From Escherichia coli (GTDB taxonomy: Bacteria > Pseudomonadota > Gammaproteobacteria > Enterobacterales > Enterobacteriaceae), in assembly GCF_003334405.1 (NCBI RefSeq), contig NZ_QOWM01000027.1: a stretch of DNA of 35,140 bases; one strand, given 5' to 3'. The notes under the pieces are model-generated. The model had not been told where the DNA came from. It did not search any database and was given only the letters and a program-made list of their open reading frames with translations. Shown here in pieces: positions 1 through 35,140 of the stretch (the stretch's first letter is position 1; the number at the start of each line of letters is the position of its first letter). The position numbers and the translations under genes are program-made.

Positions 1-200
1 CAGATGCCTGATGCGACGCTAACGCGTCTTATCAGGCCTACAAATTCCCGCGCCATCCGTAGGCCGGATAAGGCGTTCACGCCGCATCCGGCAGTCGTGC
101 GCAGATGCCTGATGCGACGCTAACGCGTCTTATCAGACCTACAAATTCTCACGCCATCCGTAGGCCGGATAAGGCGTTCACGCCGCATCCGGCAGTCGTG
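1..200. repeat. REP/BIME array: two tandem ~101-bp units, each with a pair of REP palindromes
   Basis: cagatgcctgatgcgacgc begins at 1 and again at 102; each unit contains gcctgatgcgacgc...cttatcaggcctac and gtaggccggataaggcgttcacgccgcatccggc, matching the E. coli REP consensus. Lies downstream of mhpE. Confidence 0.85.
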
Positions 201-241
201 CTGGGATGGGCATACAAAATGCACGTTCTCGGCAGTCATCA

Positions 242-1251
242 TTATTTGTTGTTGCGCAGATCCAGCGCCACGTCAACGATCATATCCTCCTGGCCGCCAA
301 CCATCCGGCGTTTGCCCAGCTCAACGAGAATATCCACCGCACTTAAGCCATAACGCGCCGCCGCCGTTTCACAGTGACGCAGGAAGCTCGAGTAAACACC
401 AGCGTATCCCAGCGCCAGCGTTTCGCGATCGACTCGTACCGGTCGATCCTGCAACGGACGCACCAGGTCGTCGGCGGCATCCATTAACGCATAGAGATCG
501 GTCCCATGCTGCCAGCCCAGTTTATCCGCGGCGGCAATAAACACTTCCAGCGGTGCGTTACCTGCGCCCGCGCCCATTCCCGCGAGGCTGGCGTCGATTC
601 GGTCGCAGCCCTCTTCCACCGCCGCGATAGAGTTCGCCACGCCAAGACTCAGGTTATGGTGAGCGTGCATGCCAGTTTGCGTTTCTGGTTTCAGCTCTGC
701 TTTCAGGGCGCGGAAACGGTCACGGATATCGCTCATGTTCATCGCACCGCCAGAATCCACCACATAAATACAGGTCGCACCGTAGCCTTCCATCAGCTTT
801 GCCTGCTTGGCGAGATTCTCCGGCGTGGTCATATGGCTCATCATCAGAAAACCAACGGTGTCCATTCCGAGCTCGCGGGCATACTGAATATGCTGGGCGG
901 AAACATCAGCTTCGGTACAGTGCGTTGCCACACGAACCACCCGCGCGCCAGCCTGCCAGGCATTTTTCAGATCGTGAATAGTGCCGATTCCTGGCAGCAA
1001 CAACGTCGCGATTTTGGCGTGCTTCACCACATCCGCCGCCGCTTCAATCCATTCAAGGTCGCTATGTGCGCCGAAACCATAGTTAAAGCTGGAACCTTGC
1101 AAACCGTCGCCGTGGGCCACTTCAATCGAATCCACGCGGGCATCGTCCAGTGCTTTGGCAATCTGGCGAACGTTTTCCAGCGAATACTGATGACGAATGG
1201 CGTGCATACCGTCACGCAATGTGACGTCCGAGATATAAAGTTTTTTACCGT

Positions 1252-1255
<4 letters not shown>
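242..1255 (-). CDS. mhpE: 4-hydroxy-2-oxovalerate aldolase
   Basis: 337-aa ORF ([25 protein letters not shown]...), HMG-CoA-lyase-like aldolase fold; start overlaps mhpF stop by 4 nt; position in mhp cluster. Confidence 0.93.
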
Positions 1256-3017
<1,762 letters not shown>

Positions 3018-3884
3018 TTAAGGGCGTGCGAGGAAATTCAGCACCAGTTGATTGAAAGCGTCGGCATGTTCCCACTGCGCCCAGTGACCACAGTCGCGGA
3101 AGATATGCAGTTCAGAACCGGCAATGCCGGACAGCAGACGCAGACCCGCATCCATCGGCACAAAGCGGTCGTTGCGCCCCCAGACAATCAGGGTTTGCGC
3201 TTTGATTTCCGCCAGACGTGGGCCAAAATCCGGGAACTGTTTCGGATTAGCTTCCAGGCTCTTAACGAAGTTTTCCAGGTGATCGCGGCGCGACAGCATA
3301 TTATTCAGGCGCGCTTCAAACAGGGCGTCGGTCAAATCGCTGGTATCAAAAACGAAGATATCCATCATCAGCTTCAGGTTTTCGATAGTCGGCTGACGAT
3401 AAAGCTGATTCAGTCGCTTAATACCTTCGGTTGGCATCGGCGTAAACAAACTCATGCCGCCCGTACCGCCGCCCATCAGCACCAGTTTGCCGACGCGCTC
3501 CGGCCATTTAAGGGTGAACGCCACAGAACTATGGCCCCCCATCGAGTTGCCCAGCAGGTGGATTTTGGCGATATCCAGTTGATCCACCACGCTTTTCAGG
3601 ATTCGTGCATTAAGATCCGATCGCGAACCACTATTAACGACCGAATCGCTCTTGCCCCAACCCGGACAATCCAGCAGGATCACCCGATAGCCCGCCTCTA
3701 CCAGCGGATCGATATTGCGGCTGAAGTTCGCCCAGCCAGTAGCACCCGGGCCGGAACCATGCAGCAGGACAACGGTTTCGTCGCCTTGTCCGCAGTCATT
3801 AAAATGGATGCGCAGCGTTTTACCCGCTTCTTCTACATTCAGAAAACGGCTGGTGGCGGCTTCGGTTTGTGGCTGATAACTCAT
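3018..3884 (-). CDS. mhpC: 2-hydroxy-6-ketonona-2,4-dienedioate hydrolase (alpha/beta hydrolase)
   Basis: ORF-track entry extends to 3947; recognised protein starts [14 protein letters not shown] (288 aa) at 3884; GNSMGG nucleophile-elbow motif present. An upstream in-frame ATG (MQEKMM) is an alternative start. Confidence 0.88.
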
Positions 3885-3901
3885 CATCTTCTCCTGCATA
3901 T

Positions 3902-4846
3902 TCAGTTCTCTGTTCTGGCGCTTAACGAGCCAAATCCGGCAATCCACTCCGGGATTGGGCGGTAATAACGCCCTTCGCTACGCCAGTTGCCAAACGCAGA
4001 AATAGCGGCAAAAGCGGCGACCCAGGTTTTGATTTCATGTGTCGACTTTCCGGCAATGGCGGAAAGCTCTTCGTTACTGACGGCATCCAGTTCCTGTATG
4101 CGTCCCTGCTCCAGCAAAGTCATGAACTGGTTATCCCAAATCGGGTTGAGCGGATGCAGCGTTCTCTGATCCTCAACAAACTTCTCAGCGGCGCTAATCA
4201 CCCGTTGCTGACGCAATTCGCGCTCACTGGCGGGTAAATCTTTCCCGCTCCCCAACAGACGGTCGCGCATATGGGCATCGGCTTTCGCCAGTTCGGGCAC
4301 CGGCGGCTGATGGGAAAGCCCACCGGAACCCAGGAACAGCACGCGTTTATTGAGAGTGCTGGTGAAACGTCCAATGGCTTCACCCAACATGCGGGTACGC
4401 TGGAAACCGGGCAGCGGCGTGGCGACACCGTTGATGAACACAGGCAGAACTGGCACCTTATCCAGCCCACCGAGCAGGAACTCCAGCGGCTGGGCGAACC
4501 CGTGGTCCACCTGCATACAGTAAGAAACGGCAAGATCGATCCCGCTCTTCATGACGGCATGCGCACAGGCCTCCGCCAGCTCCACAGGCACGGGCAGCTC
4601 TCCTGCCGCACTGCCGAAATCACCAATTGCCGTCGCTCCAACGCCTAAACAGAACGGTGGCATCACGTCATAGAAAAAGCCGTTGTAGTGATCTGGCGCA
4701 AACAGCACCACCAGTTCAGGGGAGAATGCCGCAATACGCTCGCGGGCGCTGGCAATCACGCCATTGACCTCATCGAGCACCTCTTGCGCCGGGTCGACAT
4801 ACCCCACCAGCGGCGAGTGGGAAAGACAGTGAAGATAAGCGTGCAT
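3902..4846 (-). CDS. mhpB: 3-(2,3-dihydroxyphenyl)propionate 1,2-dioxygenase (extradiol)
   Basis: 314-aa ORF ([21 protein letters not shown]...); position between mhpA and mhpC. Confidence 0.93.
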
Positions 4847-4847
4847 A

Positions 4848-6512
4848 TCAGGCTACCTTTTCGACAGAAACGTCGGCATCAGGGCGGGTCAGCGTCATCA
4901 CCGACGCCAGTTTATTCAGGGTCTTGCCCAGGGTTTGCGGAATGGCGGTGGCGGCAACAAAGCGATCCGGGCGCATCACCACCAGCGAAGCATTGTGTTG
5001 CGCGAACCAGCTACGCAGGCGACCTTGCGTATCGCCCACGCGTAGTACGCCGTCGTGGTTATCCTGTGCGGTATGAATTTGCACTTCCGGCACCACCTGA
5101 ATGAAGCGTGTGCCCAACGCGCGCCACTGCTGGATTTGCTCGTCGCTCATCCCCCACAGTGGATTGCATCCCCAGCCAATTACCGCGAAGTTCGCGCCGA
5201 TCGCGTTATCGAGCAGCGTCACGTCGCCGTTTTCCAGCGTGACTTTCGGCTGAATAAACATCTTGCCGACCGGAGAGTGCTTCGCTTCGCCCTCACGCAT
5301 CAGCGCACCGCCGTAATATTGCGGCATCGGCTTGAAGCGCATTTCGAGGAAGTAGCGTTTTACTGGCGGCAGATAATTCAACAGCCAGGAAACGCCGTCA
5401 CGTAACGTACCCTGCCAGCGTTTCGGCGGAGCCAGCACGTTGCCCGCCGTCACGGACAGGTCAATCATCGCTTTGGCGTGATCGCGACGTTCTTGTTGAT
5501 AGGTATCGAGCAGCGCATCGCGGGCTTTCCCCTGGATAACCAACGCCAGTTTCCATGCGAGGTTAAAGGCGTCGCGCATACCACTGTTATAGCCCTGCCC
5601 CTGCCATACCGGCATGATGTGCGCGGCATCGCCCGCCAGCAGTACGCGATCAATACGGAAACGTTGCGCCAGTCGCGCGTTGTGGGTGTAGACACGCTGG
5701 CGAATCAATTCAACATTGTCCGGATTAGGCAGCACTTTGCTTAACAGCTTGCGCATATTTTGCGGCTCACGCAGCTGCTCTTCGGTTTCTCCCGGCATCA
5801 CCATAAATTCAAAGCGACGTACCGCATGAGGCAGCGCGGCAGAAACATACGGGCGCACCGGATCGCAACACAAATAGATATGCGGCGTACTTAACGGATC
5901 GTTGGCGATATCTACCACAATCCACTGATTTGGCGCAGTTTTACCTTCAAACGGCACATTCAGAGTGCGACGGACAAAACTTGCTCCACCGTCACAGGCT
6001 ACCAGCCACTGGGCTTTGACTATTTCCCGCTGCCCTTCTGCCGTTTTCAGGTGCAAGGTCACTTCGTCATCTTGCTGACTGAAGGCCTCCAGCTCGCGGG
6101 AAAACAAGCAGCGCACATTCGGAAAACGCGACACCCCTTCCAGCATCACCGCATCGACCTGCGGCTGAATAAAGGCGTTACGGCGCGGCCAGCCAAATTC
6201 ATCGGTCATTGGCTGAATATCAGCAAAACAGCGGCCTTTCGGGGTGAGAAAACGCATCGCGTGCCACGGCGTAGTGTGCGGCAGAACATCATCGACCAGG
6301 CCGACCGACTGCATGGTGCGCAGCGCCTCGTCATCAATACCAATCGCACGCGGGTAGTCGATCAACTTATCGAGTTTCTCCACCACCAGCACGTCAATGC
6401 CCATCTGGCCGAGATAGTTCGCCATCATCAGCCCAACCGGGCCGGCACCAGCGATCGCCACCTGAACGCTATGGTTAACAGCAGGCTGGATGTCAGGGTG
6501 TTGTATTGCCAT
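4848..6512 (-). CDS. mhpA: 3-(3-hydroxyphenyl)propionate hydroxylase (FAD-dependent monooxygenase)
   Basis: 554-aa ORF ([35 protein letters not shown]...), N-terminal FAD-binding GxGxxG. Confidence 0.93.
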
Positions 6513-6653
6513 TTCAGTACCTCACGACTCGGACAAAATGTCGTTGCGCGCACAGTACAGCGCAACTTATTTTGTTAAAAACATGTAAATGATTTTTTAT
6601 TGTGCGCTCAGTATAGGAAGGGTGTTTTCGGCTACAATCAAAACATGCCCGAA

Positions 6654-6670
6654 TGTGCACCAGGTGCACC
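6654..6670. promoter_or_regulatory. MhpR operator (17-bp palindrome) in the mhpR-mhpA divergent control region
   Basis: TGTGCACCAGGTGCACC, whose reverse complement is GGTGCACCTGGTGCACA; ~145 bp upstream of the mhpA start codon and upstream of the mhpR start at 6703. Confidence 0.6.
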
Positions 6671-6702
6671 ACGTTGTTTTAACTATAGAAATGTCAATTA
6701 AT

Positions 6703-7536
6703 ATGCAGAACAATGAGCAGACGGAATACAAAACCGTGCGCGGCTTAACCCGCGGTCTAATGTTATTAAATATGTTAAATAAACTTGATGGCGGTGCCAG
6801 CGTCGGGCTGCTGGCGGAACTCAGCGGCCTGCATCGCACCACTGTGCGGCGACTGCTGGAGACGCTGCAGGAAGAGGGATATGTCCGCCGTAGCCCCTCC
6901 GATGATAGTTTTCGACTGACCATCAAAGTGCGGCAATTAAGCGAAGGATTTCGTGACGAACAGTGGATTTCTGCACGGGCCGCCCCACTGCTGGGCGATC
7001 TGTTGCGCGAAGTGGTATGGCCGACAGATGTGTCCACGCTGGATGTTGATGCAATGGTGGTACGCGAAACCACTCACCGTTTCAGCCGCTTATCCTTTCA
7101 CCGGGCAATGGTCGGGCGACGTTTGCCGCTTCTGAAAACCGCCTCGGGCCTGACCTGGCTGGCCTTTTGCCCGGAACAAGACCGCAAGGAATTAATCGAA
7201 ATGTTAGCCTCCCGCCCCGGTGATGACTATCAACTGGCACGGGAACCGTTAAAGCTGGAAGCCATTCTGGCGCGCGCGCGCAAAGAGGGTTACGGACAGA
7301 ACTACCGCGGCTGGGATCAGGAGGAGAAGATCGCCTCTATCGCCGTACCGCTGCGCAGTGAACAACGGGTGATTGGCTGTCTGAATCTGGTGTATATGGC
7401 GAGCGCAATGACCATTGAACAGGCAGCGGAAAAGCATCTTCCGGCGCTACAACGGGTAGCAAAACAGATCGAAGAAGGGGTTGAATCGCAGGCTATTCTG
7501 GTGGCCGGAAGGCGAAGCGGCATGCATTTACGTTGA
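6703..7536 (+). CDS. mhpR: IclR-family transcriptional activator of the mhp operon
   Basis: ORF-track entry starts at 6589 (315 aa) but the recognised 277-aa protein begins MQNNEQTEYKTVRGLTRG at ATG 6703; the longer ORF would read through the MhpR operator. Confidence 0.88.
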   Translation: MQNNEQTEYKTVRGLTRGLMLLNMLNKLDGGASVGLLAELSGLHRTTVRRLLETLQEEGYVRRSPSDDSFRLTIKVRQLSEGFRDEQWISARAAPLLGDLLREVVWPTDVSTLDVDAMVVRETTHRFSRLSFHRAMVGRRLPLLKTASGLTWLAFCPEQDRKELIEMLASRPGDDYQLAREPLKLEAILARARKEGYGQNYRGWDQEEKIASIAVPLRSEQRVIGCLNLVYMASAMTIEQAAEKHLPALQRVAKQIEEGVESQAILVAGRRSGMHLR

Positions 7537-16432: not shown

Positions 16433-17332
16433 ATGCTCTCTCGACATATCAATTATTTTCTTGCCGTGGCTGAACATGGCAGCTTCACCCGTGCCGCCAG
16501 TGCGTTGCACGTCTCCCAACCTGCGCTTTCCCAGCAGATTCGCCAGTTAGAGGAGAGTTTAGGCGTGCCGCTGTTTGACCGTAGCGGGCGAACGATTCGT
16601 CTCACTGATGCAGGAGAAGTCTGGCGACAGTACGCCAGCCGGGCGTTACAGGAACTGGGGGCGGGTAAACGGGCGATTCATGATGTTGCCGATCTGACGC
16701 GAGGATCGCTGCGTATCGCCGTCACCCCCACCTTTACGAGCTACTTTATCGGCCCCTTAATGGCGGATTTCTATGCGCGCTATCCCAGCATCACGCTCCA
16801 GCTACAGGAAATGTCGCAGGAGAAAATCGAGGATATGCTTTGCCGCGACGAGTTGGACGTTGGGATTGCCTTCGCGCCTGTGCATTCGCCGGAGCTGGAG
16901 GCAATTCCTTTACTGACAGAAAGTTTAGCGTTAGTCGTGGCGCAACATCATCCGCTGGCCGTCCATGAACAGGTGGCGTTGAGTCGCTTGCATGATGAAA
17001 AACTGGTCCTGCTCAGCGCGGAATTTGCCACCAGAGAGCAAATTGACCACTACTGCGAGAAAGCGGGGCTACATCCACAGGTGGTCATTGAGGCGAACTC
17101 AATTAGCGCGGTTCTGGAGCTGATTCGCCGCACTTCCCTTTCCACATTGTTACCAGCAGCGATTGCCACACAACATGACGGGCTTAAAGCTATTTCTCTT
17201 GCCCCGCCACTACTGGAGAGAACGGCGGTTTTGTTGCGGCGGAAAAATAGCTGGCAGACAGCCGCCGCGAAGGCATTTTTGCACATGGCGTTGGATAAAT
17301 GCGCGGTTGTTGGCGGAAATGAATCACGGTAG
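16433..17332 (+). CDS. cynR: LysR-family transcriptional activator of the cyn operon
   Basis: Recognised 299-aa protein starts [41 protein letters not shown] (HTH) at ATG 16433; ORF-track entry is over-extended to 16349; divergent from cynT. Confidence 0.9.
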
Positions 17333-17848
17333 CCGCTGACACAGGTCTGCGGCTGGAATTGCCTGATGCGCTACGCTTATCAGGCCTACGAGTTCAGTGC
17401 TCTACGTAGGCCGGATAAGGCGTTCACGCCGCATCCGGCATAAACTACAGCTGGCAGACAGCCGCTGCGAAGGCATTTTTGCACATGGCGTTGGAGGAAT
17501 GCGCGGTTGTTGGCGGGAATGAATCACGGTAGCCGCTGACACAGATCAGCGGCTGGAATTGCCTGATGCGCTACGCTTATCAGGCCTACGAGTTCAGTGC
17601 TCTACGTAGGCCGGATAAGGCGTTCACGCCGCATCCGGCATAAACTACAGCTGGCAGACAGCCGCTGCGAAGGCATTTTTGCACATGGCGTTGGAGGAAT
17701 GCGCGGTTGTTGGCGGGAATGAATCACGGTAGCCGCTGACACAGATCAGCGGCTGGAATTGCCTGATGCGCTACGCTTATCAGGCCTACGAGTTCAGTGC
17801 TCTACGTAGGCCGGATAAGGCGTTCACGCCGCATCCGGCATAAACTAA
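17249..17848. repeat. Three tandem 200-bp repeat units, each = last ~84 bp of cynR + a small hairpin + a REP pair
   Basis: ctggcagaca at 17251, 17451, 17651 and gaatcacggtagccgctgac at 17321, 17521, 17721 (period exactly 200). Units 2 and 3 are identical; unit 1 (the functional cynR 3' end) differs at ~7 positions. Confidence 0.9.
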
Positions 17849-17868
17849 GCTCGCTGTAACCCAGTCGT

Positions 17869-20553: not shown

Positions 20554-20632
20554 GTAGGCCTGATAAGACGCGTCAGCGTCGCATCAGGCATCGGCACACA
20601 GTGCCGGATGCACCGCGCGACGCATCCGACAA
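20554..20632. repeat. REP pair between prpE 3' end and the codB promoter
   Basis: gtaggcctgataagacgcgtcagcgtcgcatcaggc ... gccggatgcaccgcgcgacgcatccgac, abutting the prpE stop codon. Confidence 0.8.
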
Positions 20633-20636
20633 TAAC

Positions 20637-22522
20637 CTACTCTTCCATCGCCTGGCGGATCTGATCCAACGACGCAGGATCATCAATGGTCGTCAGATCT
20701 CCAGGATCGCGTCCTTCGCAAATCGCCTGGATCGTGCGGCGCAGCATTTTTCCGGATCGCGTTTTTGGCAATTGCGAGACAAACCAGACGTGCGCCGGGC
20801 GGCCAAAGTTGCCAATCTGGCTGTCCACCAGCGCCATAATCGCCTTCTCTTGCGAGTGCGCCACATCACGATCTTCCAGACTGTCGCTCTCTTTCGGAAT
20901 GACAAACGCCACCGCCACCTGCCCTTTCAGCGCATCTTTCACCCCAACCACCGCCACTTCGGCAACGCCCGGATGGCTGGAGATACTCTCTTCAATCTCG
21001 CGCGTCCCCAGCCGATGCCCGGCAACGTTAATTACATCGTCAGTGCGCCCGAGAATAAAGTGATAACCGTCAGCGTCACGGATGCCCCAGTCAAAGGTGG
21101 CGTACACCGGGCGGGAAAACAGCGACCAGTAAGTCTTCACAAAGCGGCCGTCGTCGCCCCAGATGGTCTGAATACACCCCGGCGGCAGCGGCCCTTCCAC
21201 CACCAGCATCCCTTTCTCGTTGACGCCACACGGTTCGCCGGTGACTTCATTAAGCAACTGCACGTTATAGCCATACATCGGCACACCGGGGCTTCCCAGA
21301 CGCGTCGGCCTGTCGTCCAGACCGCGAGCAATCGCCATAATCGGCCAGCCGGATTCGGTCTGCCAGTAGTTGTCGATGACCGGCACATCCAGCGTATTGC
21401 TCACCCAACTGGCGGTCGGCTCGTCCAGCGGTTCTCCAGCCAGATAGAGCACTTCCAGCGACGAGAGATCGTGTTTGCGAATTTCAGCGGTAGGGAATTT
21501 TTTCAGCACGCGAATGGCGGTCGGCGCTGAGAACATCCGGCTAACCTGATATTTCTCGACGATTTTCCACCACACGCCGCAGTCCGGCCAGGTCGGCAAT
21601 CCTTCGTAAACGATAGTCGCCATCCCCGCCAGCAGCGGCGCGTAAACGATATACGAATGCCCCACCACCCAGCCGATATCCGATGCGCAAAAGAACACGC
21701 TGCCCGCTTTGCCGCCAAAAATGGTGTCCATCGAGGTCGCCAGCGCCACCGCATATCCGCCGACGTCACGCTGCACGCCTTTAGGTTTGCCGGTCGTGCC
21801 GGAAGTGTAGAGAATGCAGGAGGTTTCGTTGGATTCCAGCCACGCCACCGGTACCCGCGCGCCGATGTGTTGATGGCGCAACGACGCGAAATCGACATCC
21901 CGCCCGCTGACGCGCGCCATTTTCGCCAGCCCGCGATCCACCAGCAAAACATGGCGTGGCTGGTGCTGCGCCTGACTTATCGCATCGTCGAGCAATTTTT
22001 ATAGGGAATGATTTTGCCACCGCGCGCTCCGGCATCAGCCGAGACAATCAGCACCGGTTTAGCGTCATCAATTCGCGCCGCCACGCTGTGCGAGGCAAAT
22101 CCACCAAACACCACCGAGTGAATAGCGCCAATGCGCGCGCAGGCCAGCAGAGTAATATGCGCTTCGGCAATCATCGGCATATACACCAGCACCCGATCGC
22201 CGCGCTGCACACCCAATGAACGCAACATTGAGGCCACCGCGTTCACTTCGTCATGCAGCTGACGAAAGGTAAAGGTGCGCTCTTCTTCTGTTTCCGAAGA
22301 GACGGCAATCAGCGCCAGCGCCTCTGGCTGTTTCTCCAGCCAGCGGTCGATGGCGTTGTGGCACAAGTTGGTTCGGCCTTCACAAAACCAACGGGCAAAC
22401 GGCGGATTGCTGTGATCGAGCGTTTGCGTAAAGGGCGTCTGCCAGTCAATACGCCGGGCCTGCTCGGCCCAGAACTGCTCCGGTTCGTTAATCGAACGCT
22501 GATAAAATTCGCTAAAAGACAT
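20637..22522 (-). pseudogene. prpE: Propionyl-CoA synthetase gene interrupted by a frameshift (two ORFs: 21977..22522 and 20637..21995)
   Basis: N-terminal ORF MSFSEFYQRSINEPEQFWAEQARR... ends ...GGKIIPYKNCSTMR-stop; the downstream ORF continues LDDAISQAQHQPRHVLLVDRG... with the AMP-binding motif YTSGTTGKPKG. The frames differ by one nucleotide at an A5 run (T5 at 21996..22000 on +). Confidence 0.8.
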
Positions 22523-22561: not shown

Positions 22562-24013
22562 TTAAATGACGTACAGGTCGAGATACTCATTGACCGGCAT
22601 CTGTTCCAGGCGAGCTCTGTCGAGAGAAACCTCCAGAATGCGCTGCTGTTGGCGAGTCGGGAACTGGCGCGCGAGATTGATTTTGAATTTATCGACCAGT
22701 TTCGGAATACCATCCTGACGGCGGCGAGCATGACCAATGGGGTACTCCACCACCACTTCTTCAAATCGTGTGCCGTCGGTGAACTCAAGGGTAATGGCAT
22801 TGGCGATGGCGCGTTTTTCCGGGTCGTGGTAGTCAGCGGTAAATGCCGGATCTTCAAAGCAATTGATCTTCTCGCGCAGGGCGTCAATGCGTTTATCTTG
22901 CGCAACGTTGTCCTCGTAATCTGCCGCCGTTAAGCGCCCGAATAGCAGCGGGATCGCCACCATGTACTGAATGCAGTGATCGCGGTCTGCCGGGTTATTG
23001 AGCGGCCCTTTTTTGTCGATGATGCGAATACAGGCTTCGTGGGTGCGAATGGTCACTTTTTCGATATCCGCCGCCGTTTTGCCTGCTGCCTGCATCTGTT
23101 CATAGAGCGTCATCGCTGCTTCAACTGCCGTCTGGGAGTGGAACTCCGCCGGGAAGGAGATTTTGAACAGCACATTTTCCATAACGTAGGAACCGTACGG
23201 GCGCTGGAAGCGGAACGATTCACCTTTAAAGGAGACGTCGTAGAAGCCCCACACCGGCGCAGTCAGGGCTGACGGGTAACCCATTTCGCCCGTTTTCGCC
23301 ATCAGTGCCAGACGTACCGCGCGGGAAGTGGCATCGCCTGCCGCCCAGGATTTACGCGTGCCGGTGTTCGGCGCATGGCGATAGGTGCGCAGCGACTGAC
23401 CGTCCACCCACGCCAGCGAAACGGCGTTGAGAATTTCCTCGCGGGTCAGGCCGAGCATTTCGGCGACCACGGCGGTGGAAGCCACTTTCACTAACAGAAC
23501 GTGGTCGAGGCCGACGCGGTTAAAGGAGTTTTCCAGCGCGATGCAGCCCTGAATTTCATGGGCTTTGATCATTGCGGTCAGCACCTGTTTCATGGTCAAC
23601 GGCGCTTTGCCGCTGGCGACCGCGTTGCGCGAAAGCCAGTCCGCCGTTGCCAGAATGCCGCCGAGGTTGTCGGAAGGATGGCCCCACTCCGCCGCCAGCC
23701 AGGTATCGTTGAAATCGAGCCAGCGGATCATCGCGCCGATGTTAAATGCCGCCTGGACGGGGTCGAGCTGGAACTGAGTTCCGGGGACGCGCACGCCGTT
23801 GGGTACGACGGTGCCGGGAACAATTGGCCCCAGCAGTTTTTTACAGGCCGGGTATTCGAGAGCTTCCAGACCGCAGCCGAGCGTGTCGAGCAGGCAGTAA
23901 TGTGCGGTGTCGTAGGCCACTTTAGAGCTGATTTCGTAGTTCATGACGTAATCGACGATATCAACGATTTCACGATCAAATTCCGGGCGGATGTTGTTGA
24001 TTTGAGCTGACAT
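22562..24013 (-). CDS. prpD: 2-methylcitrate dehydratase
   Basis: 483-aa [62 protein letters not shown]... Confidence 0.95.
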
Positions 24014-24046: not shown

Positions 24047-25216
24047 TTACTGGCGCTTATCCAGCGCGACAAACGGGCGGTCTTCCGGTCCAACATAATT
24101 GGCGGAAGGACGGATAATTTTGTTGTCCTGACGTTGTTCGATAATGTGCGCCGCCCAGCCGGTGACGCGGGCGATAACAAACAGTGGTGTGAACATCTCG
24201 GTGGGAACGCCCATCATGTTGTAGGAAACAGCAGAGAACCAGTCGAGATTGGGGAACATCTTTTTGCTCTCCCACATCACCGTTTCCAGGCGATCGGCGA
24301 TGTTGTACATCTTCAGCGAGCCGCCTTCCTGCGAGAGCTGCTTCGCCACACGTTTAATCACCTGGTGGCGCGGGTCAGCGATGGTGTAAACCGGATGACC
24401 AAAACCAATGACCACTTCTTTGTTTTCCACGCGCTTGCGGATATCTGCTTCGGCTTCGTCCGGCGTTTCGTAGCGTTGCTGGATCTCCAGCGACACTTCA
24501 TTCGCCCCGCCGTGTTTTGGCCCGCGCAGTGCGCCAATCGCGCCAATAATCGCGGAATACATATCAGAGCCGGTGCCCGCAATCACCCGACTGGTAAAGG
24601 TGGAGGCGTTAAACTCGTGTTCGGCGTACAGCACCAGCGAGATATGCATCGCCTTTTCCCAGCTTTGCGATGGCTTTTCGCCGTGCAGCAGATGCAGGAA
24701 GTGACCGCCGATGGAGTCGTCATCGGTTTCCGGTTGGATGCGTTCGCCGTTGTGGCTGTAGTGATACCAATAAAGGAGAATCGAGCTAAGCGACGCCAGC
24801 AGTTTGTCGGCAATATCCCGCGCGCCAGAGACGGTATGCCCCTCTTTTTCTGGCAGCGTGCAGCCGAGCGCGGAAACACCGGTGCGCATAACATCCATCG
24901 GGTGCGACGCCGCCGGTAAGGCTTCCAGCACGGTACGCACGTTAGCCGGTAAACCGCGCAGGGCTTTCAGTTTCGTTTTGTAAGCGGCGAGTTCGTCACG
25001 GGTCGGCAGTTTGCCGTGGATCAGCAGATGCGCCACTTCTTCAAATTCGCAATGTTTCGCCAGATCAAGAATATCGTAGCCGCGGTAATGCAGGTCATTG
25101 CCACTTTTACCCACGGTGCAGAGCGCCGTATTGCCCGCCGGAACGCCAGAAAGTGCCACAGATTTTTTCGGTTTAATGACATGGGTACTGTTTTGCAGGA
25201 TCGTTGTGTCGCTCAT
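24047..25216 (-). CDS. prpC: 2-methylcitrate synthase
   Basis: 389-aa [56 protein letters not shown]..., citrate-synthase family. Confidence 0.95.
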
Positions 25217-25257
25217 GTTGTCCTCGTCATTGTTATCATTTGTAGGGTCGAGATTGT

Positions 25258-25536
25258 TGTCGGATGCGACGCTATGCGTCTTATCCGACCTACAGTTCAG
25301 TTCACCCCGTAGGCCTGATAAGTCGCGTCAGCGGCGCATCAGGCATCGGTTGTCGGATGCGACGCTATGCGTCTTATCCGACCTACAGTTCAGTGCACCC
25401 CGTAGGCCTGATAAGTCACGTCAGCGGCGCATCAGGCATCGGTTGTCGGATGCGACGCCATCCGTCTTATCCGACCTACAGTTCAGTGCACCTCGTAGGC
25501 CTGATAAGTCGCGTCAGCGACGCATCAGGCATCGGC
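25258..25536. repeat. REP/BIME array: three tandem 93-bp units in the prpC-prpB spacer
   Basis: tgtcggatgcgacgc at 25258, 25351, 25444; each unit carries two REP palindromes (ggatgcgacgctatgcgtcttatccgacctac / gtaggcctgataagtcgcgtcagcggcgcatcaggc); units differ at a few positions. Confidence 0.9.
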
Positions 25537-25562
25537 TGTCGAATACAATCAACGGGCGTTTT

Positions 25563-26453
25563 TTATTTCACCTGGCTACGGGCAAACAGGTTGTCGAGCT
25601 TCTCTTCGTACTGGTAGTAGTTGATGCTTTCGTACAGCTCGTTGCGGGTCTGCATGGTGTCGATGACGCTTTTCTGCGTGCCTTCCTGGCGCAGGACGTT
25701 GTAGACATGTTCAGCGGCGCGGTTCATGGCGCGGAACGCTGAAAGTGGGTACAGCGCCATTGCGACATGGGCGCTGCGTAATTCGTCGGTGGTAAACAGC
25801 GGCGTGGCACCAAATTCGGTGATGTTGGCGAGGATCGGCACCTGCACCGCATCGGCAAACTGGCGGTACATGGCGAGTTCGGTAATCGCCTCCGGGAACA
25901 ACATCTCGGCACCCGCTTCAACATAGGCCTGCGCACGCTCGATCGCCGCATCCAGCCCCTCTACCGCCAGAGCATCGGTGCGCGCCATGATCACAAAATC
26001 AGGATCGGTTTTCGCATCCACCGCCGCGCGGATCCGATCCACCATCTCTTCTTTCGAGACGATCGCTTTATTCGGACGATGACCGCAGCGTTTCGCACCA
26101 ACCTGATCTTCAATATGCAATCCTGCCGCACCGGCTTTAATCATCGATTTCACGGTGCGCGCCACGTTAAAGGCCGAAGAACCAAAACCGATATCCGCAT
26201 CCACCAGCAGCGGCAGCGAACAAACGTCGGTGATACGGCGAATGTCGGTCAGCACATCATCAAGGGTAGAAATACCGAGATCGGGCAGCCCCAGCGAACC
26301 TGCCGCCACGCCACCGCCAGAAAGATAAATTGCCTGATATCCGGCACGCTGCGCCAACAGCGCATGATTAGCGTTGATGGTGCCAACAATCTGCAATGGA
26401 TTTTCTTTAGTCAGTGCAGCGCGAAACGCTTTACCTGGAGAGTGTAGAGACAT
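25563..26453 (-). CDS. prpB: 2-methylisocitrate lyase
   Basis: 296-aa [63 protein letters not shown]..., PEP-mutase/isocitrate-lyase family. Confidence 0.95.
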
Positions 26454-26691: not shown

Positions 26692-28278
26692 ATGGCACAT
26701 CCACCACGGCTTAATGACGACAAACCGGTTATCTGGACGGTATCTGTAACGCGCCTGTTCGAGCTGTTTCGCGATATCAGCCTCGAGTTTGATCACCTGG
26801 CGAACATTACCCCTATTCAGCTTGGCTTTGAAAAAGCAGTGACCTACATCCGCAAGAAACTGGCAAACGAACGCTGTGACGCCATCATCGCGGCTGGCTC
26901 TAACGGCGCGTACCTGAAAAGCCGCCTGTCAGTGCCAGTTATTTTGATTAAACCGAGCGGCTACGATGTGTTACAGGCACTGGCAAAAGCCGGAAAACTC
27001 ACCTCTTCTATCGGCGTTGTCACCTATCAGGAAACCATTCCAGCGCTGGTGGCGTTTCAAAAAACCTTTAATTTGCGCCTCGACCAACGTAGCTACATTA
27101 CCGAGGAAGACGCACGCGGGCAGATTAACGAGCTAAAAGCTAACGGCACCGAAGCGGTGGTCGGCGCAGGGCTGATTACCGATTTGGCAGAAGAAGCCGG
27201 AATGACCGGAATTTTTATCTATTCCGCCGCCACCGTGCGCCAGGCGTTCAGCGATGCGCTGGATATGACGCGCATGTCGTTACGCCATAACACTCACGAT
27301 GCCACCCGCAACGCCCTGCGTACTCGTTACGTGCTGGGCGATATGCTCGGTCAATCACCACAGATGGAACAAGTACGGCAGACTATTTTGCTGTATGCCC
27401 GCTCCAGTGCGGCGGTGTTGATTGAGGGGGAAACGGGGACGGGCAAAGAGCTGGCGGCCCAGGCGATTCATCGGGAATATTTTGCCCGCCACGATGCGCG
27501 ACAGGGCAAAAAGTCGCATCCGTTTGTTGCCGTCAACTGCGGGGCGATTGCCGAATCGCTGCTGGAAGCAGAACTGTTTGGCTATGAGGAAGGGGCGTTT
27601 ACCGGCTCGCGACGCGGAGGTCGCGCCGGGCTGTTCGAAATTGCCCACGGCGGTACGCTGTTTCTGGATGAGATTGGCGAAATGCCGCTACCTTTGCAGA
27701 CCCGGCTGCTGCGGGTGCTGGAAGAAAAAGAGGTCACCCGCGTCGGCGGGCATCAGCCTGTTCCGGTAGATGTACGGGTCATTAGCGCCACTCACTGCAA
27801 TCTGGAAGAAGATATGCAGCAAGGACGTTTTCGCCGTGATCTGTTTTATCGGCTGAGTATTTTGCGTCTGCAATTGCCACCACTGCGCGAGCGGGTGGCG
27901 GATATTCTTCCGCTGGCGGAAAGCTTTTTGAAAGTGTCTCTGGCGGCGCTCTCCGCCCCATTTTCTGCTGCATTACGCCAGGGGTTACAGGCAAGTGAAA
28001 CTGTGCTGCTGCACTACGACTGGCCAGGCAATATTCGTGAACTGCGCAATATGATGGAACGACTGGCGCTGTTTTTAAGTGTGGAACCGACGCCGGATTT
28101 AACGCCGCAGTTTATGCAACTGCTACTGCCGGAACTGGCGCGCGAGTCGGCGAAAACTCCCGCTCCACGCTTACTGACACCACAACAGGCACTGGAGAAA
28201 TTTAATGGCGATAAAACAGCAGCGGCGAATTATTTAGGCATCAGCCGGACGACGTTCTGGCGGCGGCTGAAAAGCTGA
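26692..28278 (+). CDS. prpR: Sigma54-dependent transcriptional activator of the prp operon
   Basis: 528-aa protein [33 protein letters not shown]... with AAA+ Walker [15 protein letters not shown] sigma54-contact motif and C-terminal HTH; ORF-track entry starts 4 codons upstream at a TTG. Confidence 0.92.
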
Positions 28279-32627: not shown

Positions 32628-34010
32628 TCAACCTGCCACACTCCCCCACACCAGTTGCCCTTTATGGAACGTTGCGGTTCTCGGCGAGATACGCGCCACC
32701 GCCTCGGCGGAACAGGAGGCGTCCACCAGCACAAAGCTGGCGTCATCCTGCGCTTTTGGCCATACACGCTCGCCTTTTTCATTCAGCGGCAATACATCGC
32801 CAGTGGCTAAAAACAGCGAGCGGGAGAGGTTCTGTTCGTTAGGACGAATATAGAGCTGCGCGTACAGATTGGCTTTTTCCAGCATGTCGCCCAGACCATA
32901 AGGCGACCAGTGGTCGATAACGCTGTCAGTGCCAGTCATCACTTTTACGCCTTTGTCGTGCAACTGTTTGAGCGGCATATGCAGCGTGCCAATCGGCACC
33001 GTCGAGGCGATAGAAATTTGTTGCACCACCATCCGGTTCGCCAGTTCATCTACCTGTTGCTCGTTGAGCGTTGCCAGCGCAAAGGCGTGACTGATGGTCA
33101 GCTTGCCCTTCAGCTGTGGCGTTTTCTCTACCGTTTCAACCATATAATTGATGGCTGCCACGCCTGCCGGAGTGGTTTCGTGCAGGTGAATATCGACGCC
33201 TTTGTCGTAGTCCAGCGCAATCTGGAACATGGTGTCGAGGGATTTTTCCATCGCGCCATCAACACTGGTCGGGTCCAGGCCGCCGACGTAATGCGCCCCC
33301 GCCTGCATCGCTTCACGCATTAAAGGTTCAGATTTCGACAGCAGCAAACCGTGCTGCGGGAAGGCGACGATTTCACACTCAAAGCCCGCCTGACGTCGCG
33401 CCAGCACCGCCTGCAAATTTTGCAGATTTTTCAGGCCGGAAACCGGTTCGATATTGCAGTGGCTGCGGGCAATGGTGGTGCCTTTCGACTGCAATAAATC
33501 AATCAGTTTTTCTGCCCGCTCCTGAGTGTACGGTTGCAGTTCCGGCAGCATTTTCTGCTCGAGTTTGATCATGTCCTGGATGGTGGTGCCTGCCGGACGA
33601 TTGAGCGAGCGCCACGGCCCGCCGTAAAAGGTTTTGTCGAGATGAATATGCATGTCGCGGGTGGTGGGCAGCATCAGCTTACCGCCAGCGTCATAGTGCG
33701 GCAGCGTGGCGTCCGGATGCAGCTTGTTCTCGCGCAGGGCGACAATTTTGCCGTCCTGAATCTCCACGGTCTGGCGCGCCGTGCGGGTCTGCACCGCCAC
33801 GCCATTTTCGTAGTCAAAACCGGTTTCCAGCAGCACGTTATCGAGATAGTAATGCGGGTCAGTGATTTTCATGGTGTTGTTCGCTTCGCAGTTTAGGGTG
33901 CCAGCTACCGCCGCATGGGCGAGCGGCACAGAGGTACCAAACAGCGCGGCGGCGGTGACCATCTTACCGCTCTGGCTCAGAAATTCACGGCGGCTATTGC
34001 TTTCTTTCAT
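32628..34010 (-). CDS. yahJ: Amidohydrolase-family putative deaminase with a Tat signal peptide
   Basis: 460-aa ORF MKESNSRREFLSQSGKMVTAAALFGTSVPLAHAAVAG...: twin-arginine motif SRREFL, hydrophobic stretch, AxA cleavage site; metal-dependent amidohydrolase HxH-like motif (RDMHIHLD). Confidence 0.85.
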   Translation of the reverse strand: MKESNSRREFLSQSGKMVTAAALFGTSVPLAHAAVAGTLNCEANNTMKITDPHYYLDNVLLETGFDYENGVAVQTRTARQTVEIQDGKIVALRENKLHPDATLPHYDAGGKLMLPTTRDMHIHLDKTFYGGPWRSLNRPAGTTIQDMIKLEQKMLPELQPYTQERAEKLIDLLQSKGTTIARSHCNIEPVSGLKNLQNLQAVLARRQAGFECEIVAFPQHGLLLSKSEPLMREAMQAGAHYVGGLDPTSVDGAMEKSLDTMFQIALDYDKGVDIHLHETTPAGVAAINYMVETVEKTPQLKGKLTISHAFALATLNEQQVDELANRMVVQQISIASTVPIGTLHMPLKQLHDKGVKVMTGTDSVIDHWSPYGLGDMLEKANLYAQLYIRPNEQNLSRSLFLATGDVLPLNEKGERVWPKAQDDASFVLVDASCSAEAVARISPRTATFHKGQLVWGSVAG

Positions 34011-34970: not shown

Positions 34971-35020
34971 GTTGTTATGTCCGCTACAGAGGGTGATGGG
35001 GTTATGACCAACGCCAGACT

Positions 35021-35140
35021 GCCTGATGCGCTACGCTTATCAGGCCTACAATTCTCGCGCCACTCGTAGGCCGGATAAGGCGTTCACGCCGCATCCGGCA
35101 ATGGTGACAAATGCCTGATGCGCTACGCTTATCAGGCCTA
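35021..35140. repeat. REP elements upstream of yahI (run off the window end)
   Basis: gcctgatgcgctacgcttatcaggcctac ... gtaggccggataaggcgttcacgccgcatccggc ... gcctgatgcgctacgcttatcaggccta. Confidence 0.85.

Follow-up and report, generated by a model that had tools for sequence, protein, structure and literature searches.

Is prpE, which encodes propionate--CoA ligase, truly disrupted in this Escherichia coli strain, or does its broken reading frame reflect an error in the assembly? The window, the whole stretch of 35,140 nucleotides that was analysed, corresponds to the lac-cyn-cod-prp-yah neighbourhood of E. coli. According to the annotation of its closest relatives it carries mhpE-A, mhpR, lacIZYA, cynXST, cynR, codAB, prpEDCB, prpR and yahO-yahI. 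As the last gene of prpBCDE, prpE (20637..22522, minus strand) lies in the orthologous position next to prpR. Annotated relatives and K-12 show the same order of genes, and the locus is that described for the prpBCDE operon of E. coli and Salmonella (prpR divergent, prpB-prpC-prpD-prpE, then codBA). No 100% match turned up among 5,426 complete RefSeq genomes, and relatives were picked out by means of identical proteins. Strain 2017.20.01CC (L002), the closest relative of the window, has an intact prpE and served as the reference for base-by-base comparison. The remaining genes of the locus are intact, as the first-pass annotation had claimed for prpB, prpC and prpD: prpD (22562..24013, minus strand, 483 aa), prpC (24047..25216, minus strand, 389 aa), prpB (25563..26453, minus strand, 296 aa) and the regulatory gene prpR (26692..28278, plus strand, 528 aa) all encode full-length proteins identical to those of L002 (WP_001275859.1 for PrpD).

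The ORF listing divided prpE into two abutting ORFs on the minus strand, one at 21977..22522 (181 aa, ATG start) and one at 20637..21995 (452 aa, TTG start), which share 19 nt, from the TTG at 21995 to the stop codon of the upstream ORF at 21977..21979. On the coding strand the junction reads CCC TAT AAA AAT TGC TCG ACG ATG CGA TAA. Translation of the whole span in one frame gave the normal protein as far as ...GGKIIPYK, followed by NCSTMR and a stop codon; the upstream ORF thus represents PrpE residues 1-175 plus this short out-of-frame tail, and the downstream ORF represents residues 177-628. The first-pass annotation had described the same two ORFs and junction, attributed them to a 1-bp homopolymer frameshift and predicted that one more A would give a continuous ORF of ~628 aa. 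Alignment of the window with L002 agreed on each point. A single missing base was placed in the A run (TCGAGCAA-TTTTTATA vs TCGAGCAATTTTTTATA), which has five A at 22000..21996 on the minus strand (T5 at 21996..22000 on the plus strand; codons 175-176) and six in the wild type, and across the break site the intact protein reads ...IIPYKKLLDDAISQ... as predicted. Apart from this deletion, which leaves 1886 nt instead of 1887, and one synonymous SNP (21849), the gene is identical to the L002 allele; the difference from intact relatives amounts to the missing A and at most one SNP.

Profile searches confirmed the identification of the gene as prpE. PrpE of the intact relative matched the NCBIfam equivalog TIGR02316 over positions 1-628 of 628 with 1308 bits (cut-off 827.4 bits; cut-off of NF007815, 955 bits). 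The 181-aa product from the native start scored 356.7 bits over profile positions 1-176 only, and thus is not a full-length single-polypeptide PrpE. The 452-aa ORF scored 930 bits, above the cut-off of TIGR02316 and below that of NF007815, and lacked positions 1-176, matching positions 177-628; between them the two pieces cover the profile.

The prpE of K-12 MG1655 (b0335, WP_000010288.1) has A6 and is intact at 1887 nt, and the possibility that the reference gene is equally split did not hold. An A6 run within an unbroken prpE of 1887 nt and 628 aa was found in K-12 and in each of the complete-genome matches inspected, and the best matches in complete RefSeq genomes to the 1886-nt gene of the window span 1887 nt. 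When 81 nt around the run were used as a probe, with the run in the middle, A5 was matched exactly in none of the 5,224 complete E. coli genomes of RefSeq that contain the stretch; the best match was 98.8%, and all 60 matches listed span 82 bases. Since K-12 and the inspected complete-genome matches are unbroken and lack an exact A5 match, the split is a derived lesion and not a conserved recoding site. Judged by its sequence, the window gene is a member of prpE by descent that no longer has an intact ORF, that is, a frameshifted pseudogene, and it should be annotated as one such pseudogene rather than as two AMP-binding proteins.

Real mutation or sequencing error

The first-pass annotation had left it open whether the missing base was a real mutation or a sequencing error. 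That caution was justified, as A5 at this position is an error in other assemblies, and the evidence now favours a real mutation in the window. The exact 181-aa product is recorded on 98 contigs in NCBI, ENA and Logan, a mixed set, and the truncated protein has already been deposited, for example as EGW86182.1 of E. coli STEC_94C. In six of the assemblies with A5 (L004, L006, L007, L010, L011, L012) nearly every neighbouring gene is fragmented, and there A5 is plainly a sequencing error; it is likewise an error in L018 and L020, which like the other six are noisy long-read assemblies. Recurrence of the change in such fragmented surroundings would fit the view that the window, too, has lost the base in a homopolymer miscall and that the strain truly has A6 and an intact prpE. 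The same view can draw on the lack of an exact A5 match among the 5,224 complete genomes and on the window itself, which resolves long REP arrays, suggesting long-read data. A further assembly, L005 (GCA_900449325.1), has a prpE allele identical to that of the window and was considered as independent confirmation; it carries three other small homopolymer indels, is therefore error-prone in its own right and was downgraded to weak support.

Against an error stands the quality of the window sequence. Over 35 kb it differs from L002 by 92 SNPs and by only one 1-bp indel in unique sequence, the prpE deletion, which indicates that the assembly is not indel-prone; the other gap in this comparison is an alignment edge inside a repeat array. 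The remaining 28 genes of the window are all full length and have no internal stop.

More direct evidence came from three further assemblies of the same clone or clade, retrieved with the exact 427-aa downstream product, which carry A5 with their neighbouring genes intact. L019 (GCA_024592615.1), a separate draft, shows no difference from the window in unique sequence between 10237 and 32013 and shares its private SNPs 23339 and 18466. Its repeat arrays are shorter (codA-cynR spacer 137 nt vs 536 nt in the window; prpB-prpC spacer 253 vs 346 nt), the REP arrays being collapsed as in short-read assemblies. The Logan contig L026 (run SRR3823652) is identical to the window over 2260 nt including A5. 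A second Logan contig, L024 (run ERR3469010), has A5 and differs from the window only at private SNP 23339; as it lacks this SNP it represents a different strain of the clade, which in turn implies that A5 is shared by descent. The sequencing platforms of the three were deduced from their clean gene content and collapsed repeats. As assemblies of short-read type and contigs derived from raw reads thus independently carry A5 in this small group of close strains, and all members of the window clade that were seen have A5, the deletion is very probably real and inherited within a small clade. We therefore hold it to be highly likely that prpE of this strain has been inactivated by a real, inherited, clade-level loss of one A from the A6 run, and regard a miscalled homopolymer as quite improbable. 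One and the same homopolymer change is thus genuine in some genomes and a product of sequencing in others.

A contraction of a second run was noticed in one Logan contig (L025, SRR18191623), where an A6 run of prpD (GACAAAAAAGGG; position equivalent to window 23014) reads A5 and splits that gene. The contig also has A5 in prpE, which suggests either that the data set contains many errors or that runs tend to contract in this strain.

Other inactivating alleles of prpE

A5 also occurs on other prpE backgrounds in clean contexts, namely in L008 and L013, which are 1 nt apart and each ~25 SNPs from the window prpE, and in L009 (21 SNPs from the window) together with three similar places. For L009 and L008, the nearest alleles in complete genomes are 1887 nt long, and the bit scores fit a missing A only for L009 and a missing A plus one further small difference for L008. 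On this comparison of alleles, the same A6-to-A5 slippage has occurred at least three times, in the window and on at least two other backgrounds.

Public assemblies contain prpE alleles inactivated by different mutations with the same loss of function. Nonsense alleles comprise K175* (TAT TAA AAA; L015 and L016, with the junction also in L027), L177* (TTG>TAG; L038), Q184* (L022) and Q186* (L017). A complex indel is present in L023 at window-equivalent 21945-6, and IS421 is inserted near codon 412 in strains 158 and 167 (L036). Queries with the exact 452-aa and 427-aa fragments retrieve only lesions just upstream of the starts of those fragments, and because exact downstream fragments were used as queries, the clustering of lesions near codons 175-195 is a search artefact. 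For the same reason we rejected the idea that two hits on one codon are special. That loss of a T from the K175* allele TATTAAAAATTG, which the close relatives L015 and L016 carry, produced the window sequence TATAAAAATTG was also considered and rejected as unsupported. K175* was seen only in a single NCBI assembly and in a single Logan contig that is on record for two samples, and most matches of '174 aa' are genes cut by contig ends.

Contig ends accumulate at this site. A PrpE product ending at K176 is recorded on 330 contigs, compared with 1-31 for products ending at neighbouring codons. In eight of ten places read, the contig stops at ...TATAAAAAATT, the position equivalent to window 21994 (L039-L046), and numerous contigs from short-read and metagenome data terminate at ...CCCTATAAAAAATT, 2 nt beyond the run. 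This pile-up could reflect a branch point that is common where a sample contains several strains, or an insertion/deletion junction. An IS insertion at the run was rejected as its cause, the IS421 of strains 158 and 167 being located near codon 412.

Gains and losses of one base in mononucleotide runs usually arise by replication slippage, and the A of the window prpE would have been lost in this way within the A6 run. In this respect the gene is one of the familiar strain-specific slippage pseudogenes, with a one-base loss in a 6-nt run, at least three affected backgrounds and no secondary decay, and we found no feature of the window prpE that distinguishes it from them. Besides the deletion only one synonymous SNP separates it from the L002 allele, which indicates that the pseudogene is young. 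When checked for phase variation, the tract proved to be only 6 nt long in the ON state, with A5 on at least three backgrounds and in all window-clade members seen. The inactivation is gene loss of an ordinary kind, recent and confined to a group of strains, and involves no new mechanism. No paper dealing with a frameshifted or pseudogenized prpE of E. coli was found in a literature search.

The at least three independent A6-to-A5 events, with the several nonsense and IS alleles in public assemblies, might be taken to mean that loss of PrpE is recurrently selected in some E. coli niches and that the A6 run is a preferred target for it; one benefit, for example, would be that toxic propionyl-CoA or 2-methylcitrate is formed in smaller amounts where propionate is plentiful. 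The data are explained equally well by search bias combined with neutral decay of a gene that is redundant, and we consider selection of this kind very doubtful.

The PrpE product and propionate activation

In intact PrpE, Pfam identified ACAS_N (4-57), AMP-binding (PF00501, 59-445) and AMP-binding_C (509-592), and the nearest solved structures are 5gxd, a 630-residue AMP-dependent synthetase and ligase, and acetyl-CoA synthetases. In the window, the frame that opens at the native start codon is lost after Lys175, and a stop follows six codons further on. The resulting 181-aa product contains ACAS_N but, of the AMP-binding domain, no more than roughly the first third; the remainder of that domain is missing from it. 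The adenylate-binding loop YTSGTTGKPKG (wild-type residues 239-249), the SGKMLRR lysine motif (590-596) and AMP-binding_C all lie on the 452-aa ORF, downstream of the break at codon 176. In the window, therefore, the adenylate-forming motifs are not encoded in the same chain as the N-terminal region, and the earlier description of the 181-aa fragment as lacking the AMP-binding core is accurate as regards the loop and AMP-binding_C; about one third of the AMP-binding domain, its N-terminal part, is still present. Shine-Dalgarno support is absent at the TTG (position 21995; dG +2.2 kcal/mol, vs -7.4 at the native start codon) and weak at the ATG that follows at 21920 (-4.3 kcal/mol); the 452 codons left over lack a credible start of their own. 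Unlike functional PrpE, the window gene has its frame broken at codon 176, and active PrpE is almost certainly lost, as far as can be predicted from sequence.

Active protein could still be made if ribosomes shifted to the -1 frame, or RNA polymerase slipped, on the A run often enough to yield functional amounts of full-length PrpE. A runs with tRNA-Lys codons are a slip-prone type of sequence in E. coli, the break lies within such a run and the shift needed is -1, much as at the -1 site of dnaX (A AAA AAG), where the run is likewise A-rich and made of lysine codons. Unlike dnaX, the window has no proper heptamer, since T precedes the run and the zero-frame T AAA AAT does not fit X XXY YYZ; its split is not conserved among orthologues, and the wild type is an unbroken ORF, continuous in K-12 and among the complete-genome matches listed, with no exact A5 match in 5,224 genomes. 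Appreciable transcriptional slippage needs roughly 8-9 A, and the run has only 5 nt. With neither a slippery heptamer nor a run of at least 8-9 A/T, bypass of the frameshift seems to us highly unlikely. That both fragments are made and assemble into an active split PrpE is extremely improbable: the 19-nt overlap is a geometry that can permit termination-reinitiation and the two ORFs jointly hold all PrpE residues except Lys176, but the TTG lacks Shine-Dalgarno support, the break falls inside the single large AMP-binding domain and not at the known inter-domain hinge, and no naturally split PrpE or Acs was found among the relatives examined.

Loss of prpE by frameshift, the reading favoured here, is expected to have a mild phenotype, because Acs and Pta-AckA can also make propionyl-CoA. 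As prpE is the last gene of prpBCDE, prpB, prpC and prpD would be unaffected. Horswill and Escalante-Semerena (1999) reportedly found that Salmonella prpE mutants continue to grow on propionate unless acs is lost as well. With propionyl-CoA supplied by Acs or Pta-AckA, the 2-methylcitrate cycle would still run with PrpB, PrpC and PrpD, and loss of prpE would be tolerable; this redundancy plausibly explains why the loss is tolerated. PrpE, AcsA and Pta-AckA have been described as alternative routes of propionate activation (PMC9765439), and in the passage of PMC6693092 that cites Liu et al., deletion of acs is stated to prevent E. coli from using propionate. To activate propionate, the strain and its small clade would be expected to rely on Acs or Pta-AckA, and the prp operon of the strain may be induced more slowly or the strain may grow more slowly at low propionate. 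The finding matters mainly for annotation and strain phenotype and touches no open biological question.

Repeats and other differences in the window

Several repeat arrays were observed. The cynR-codA spacer (17249..17851) contains a 200-bp unit repeated 3.0 times at 98% identity; judged by spacer length there are ~3 copies in the window and L020, two in L002, L003 and L005, and ~1 in L019. RefSeq annotates a small partial 'hypothetical protein' pseudogene inside this repeat. In the prpB-prpC spacer (25256..25541) a 93-bp REP-like unit occurs 3.1 times, one unit fewer than in L002 and L003, and in L008, L009 and L013 this spacer measures only 45 nt. A 101-bp REP-like unit is present twice at 1..201, and related REP-like copies that cross-match the other arrays occupy the right end (35020..35140).

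Of the 72 differences from L002 in the left half of the window, 68 fall in the first 7 kb (1..7000, mhpE-mhpA) and four in the next 10 kb. This SNP density suggests a recombination tract ending near mhpA/mhpR; amino-acid differences from L002 are found in MhpE, MhpC, MhpA and MhpR. The yahJ gene (32628..34010) is intact in the window, with Gln145 (position 33578) at the codon that is an internal stop in L002, whose yahJ carries a pseudogene annotation, and yahG, just outside the window, is a pseudogene in both relatives. In the REP region that follows the prpE stop codon (20593..20623), ~12 clustered differences and two small indels separate the window and L019 from L005, L015 and L017; this block is probably an alternative REP variant and not a set of point mutations.
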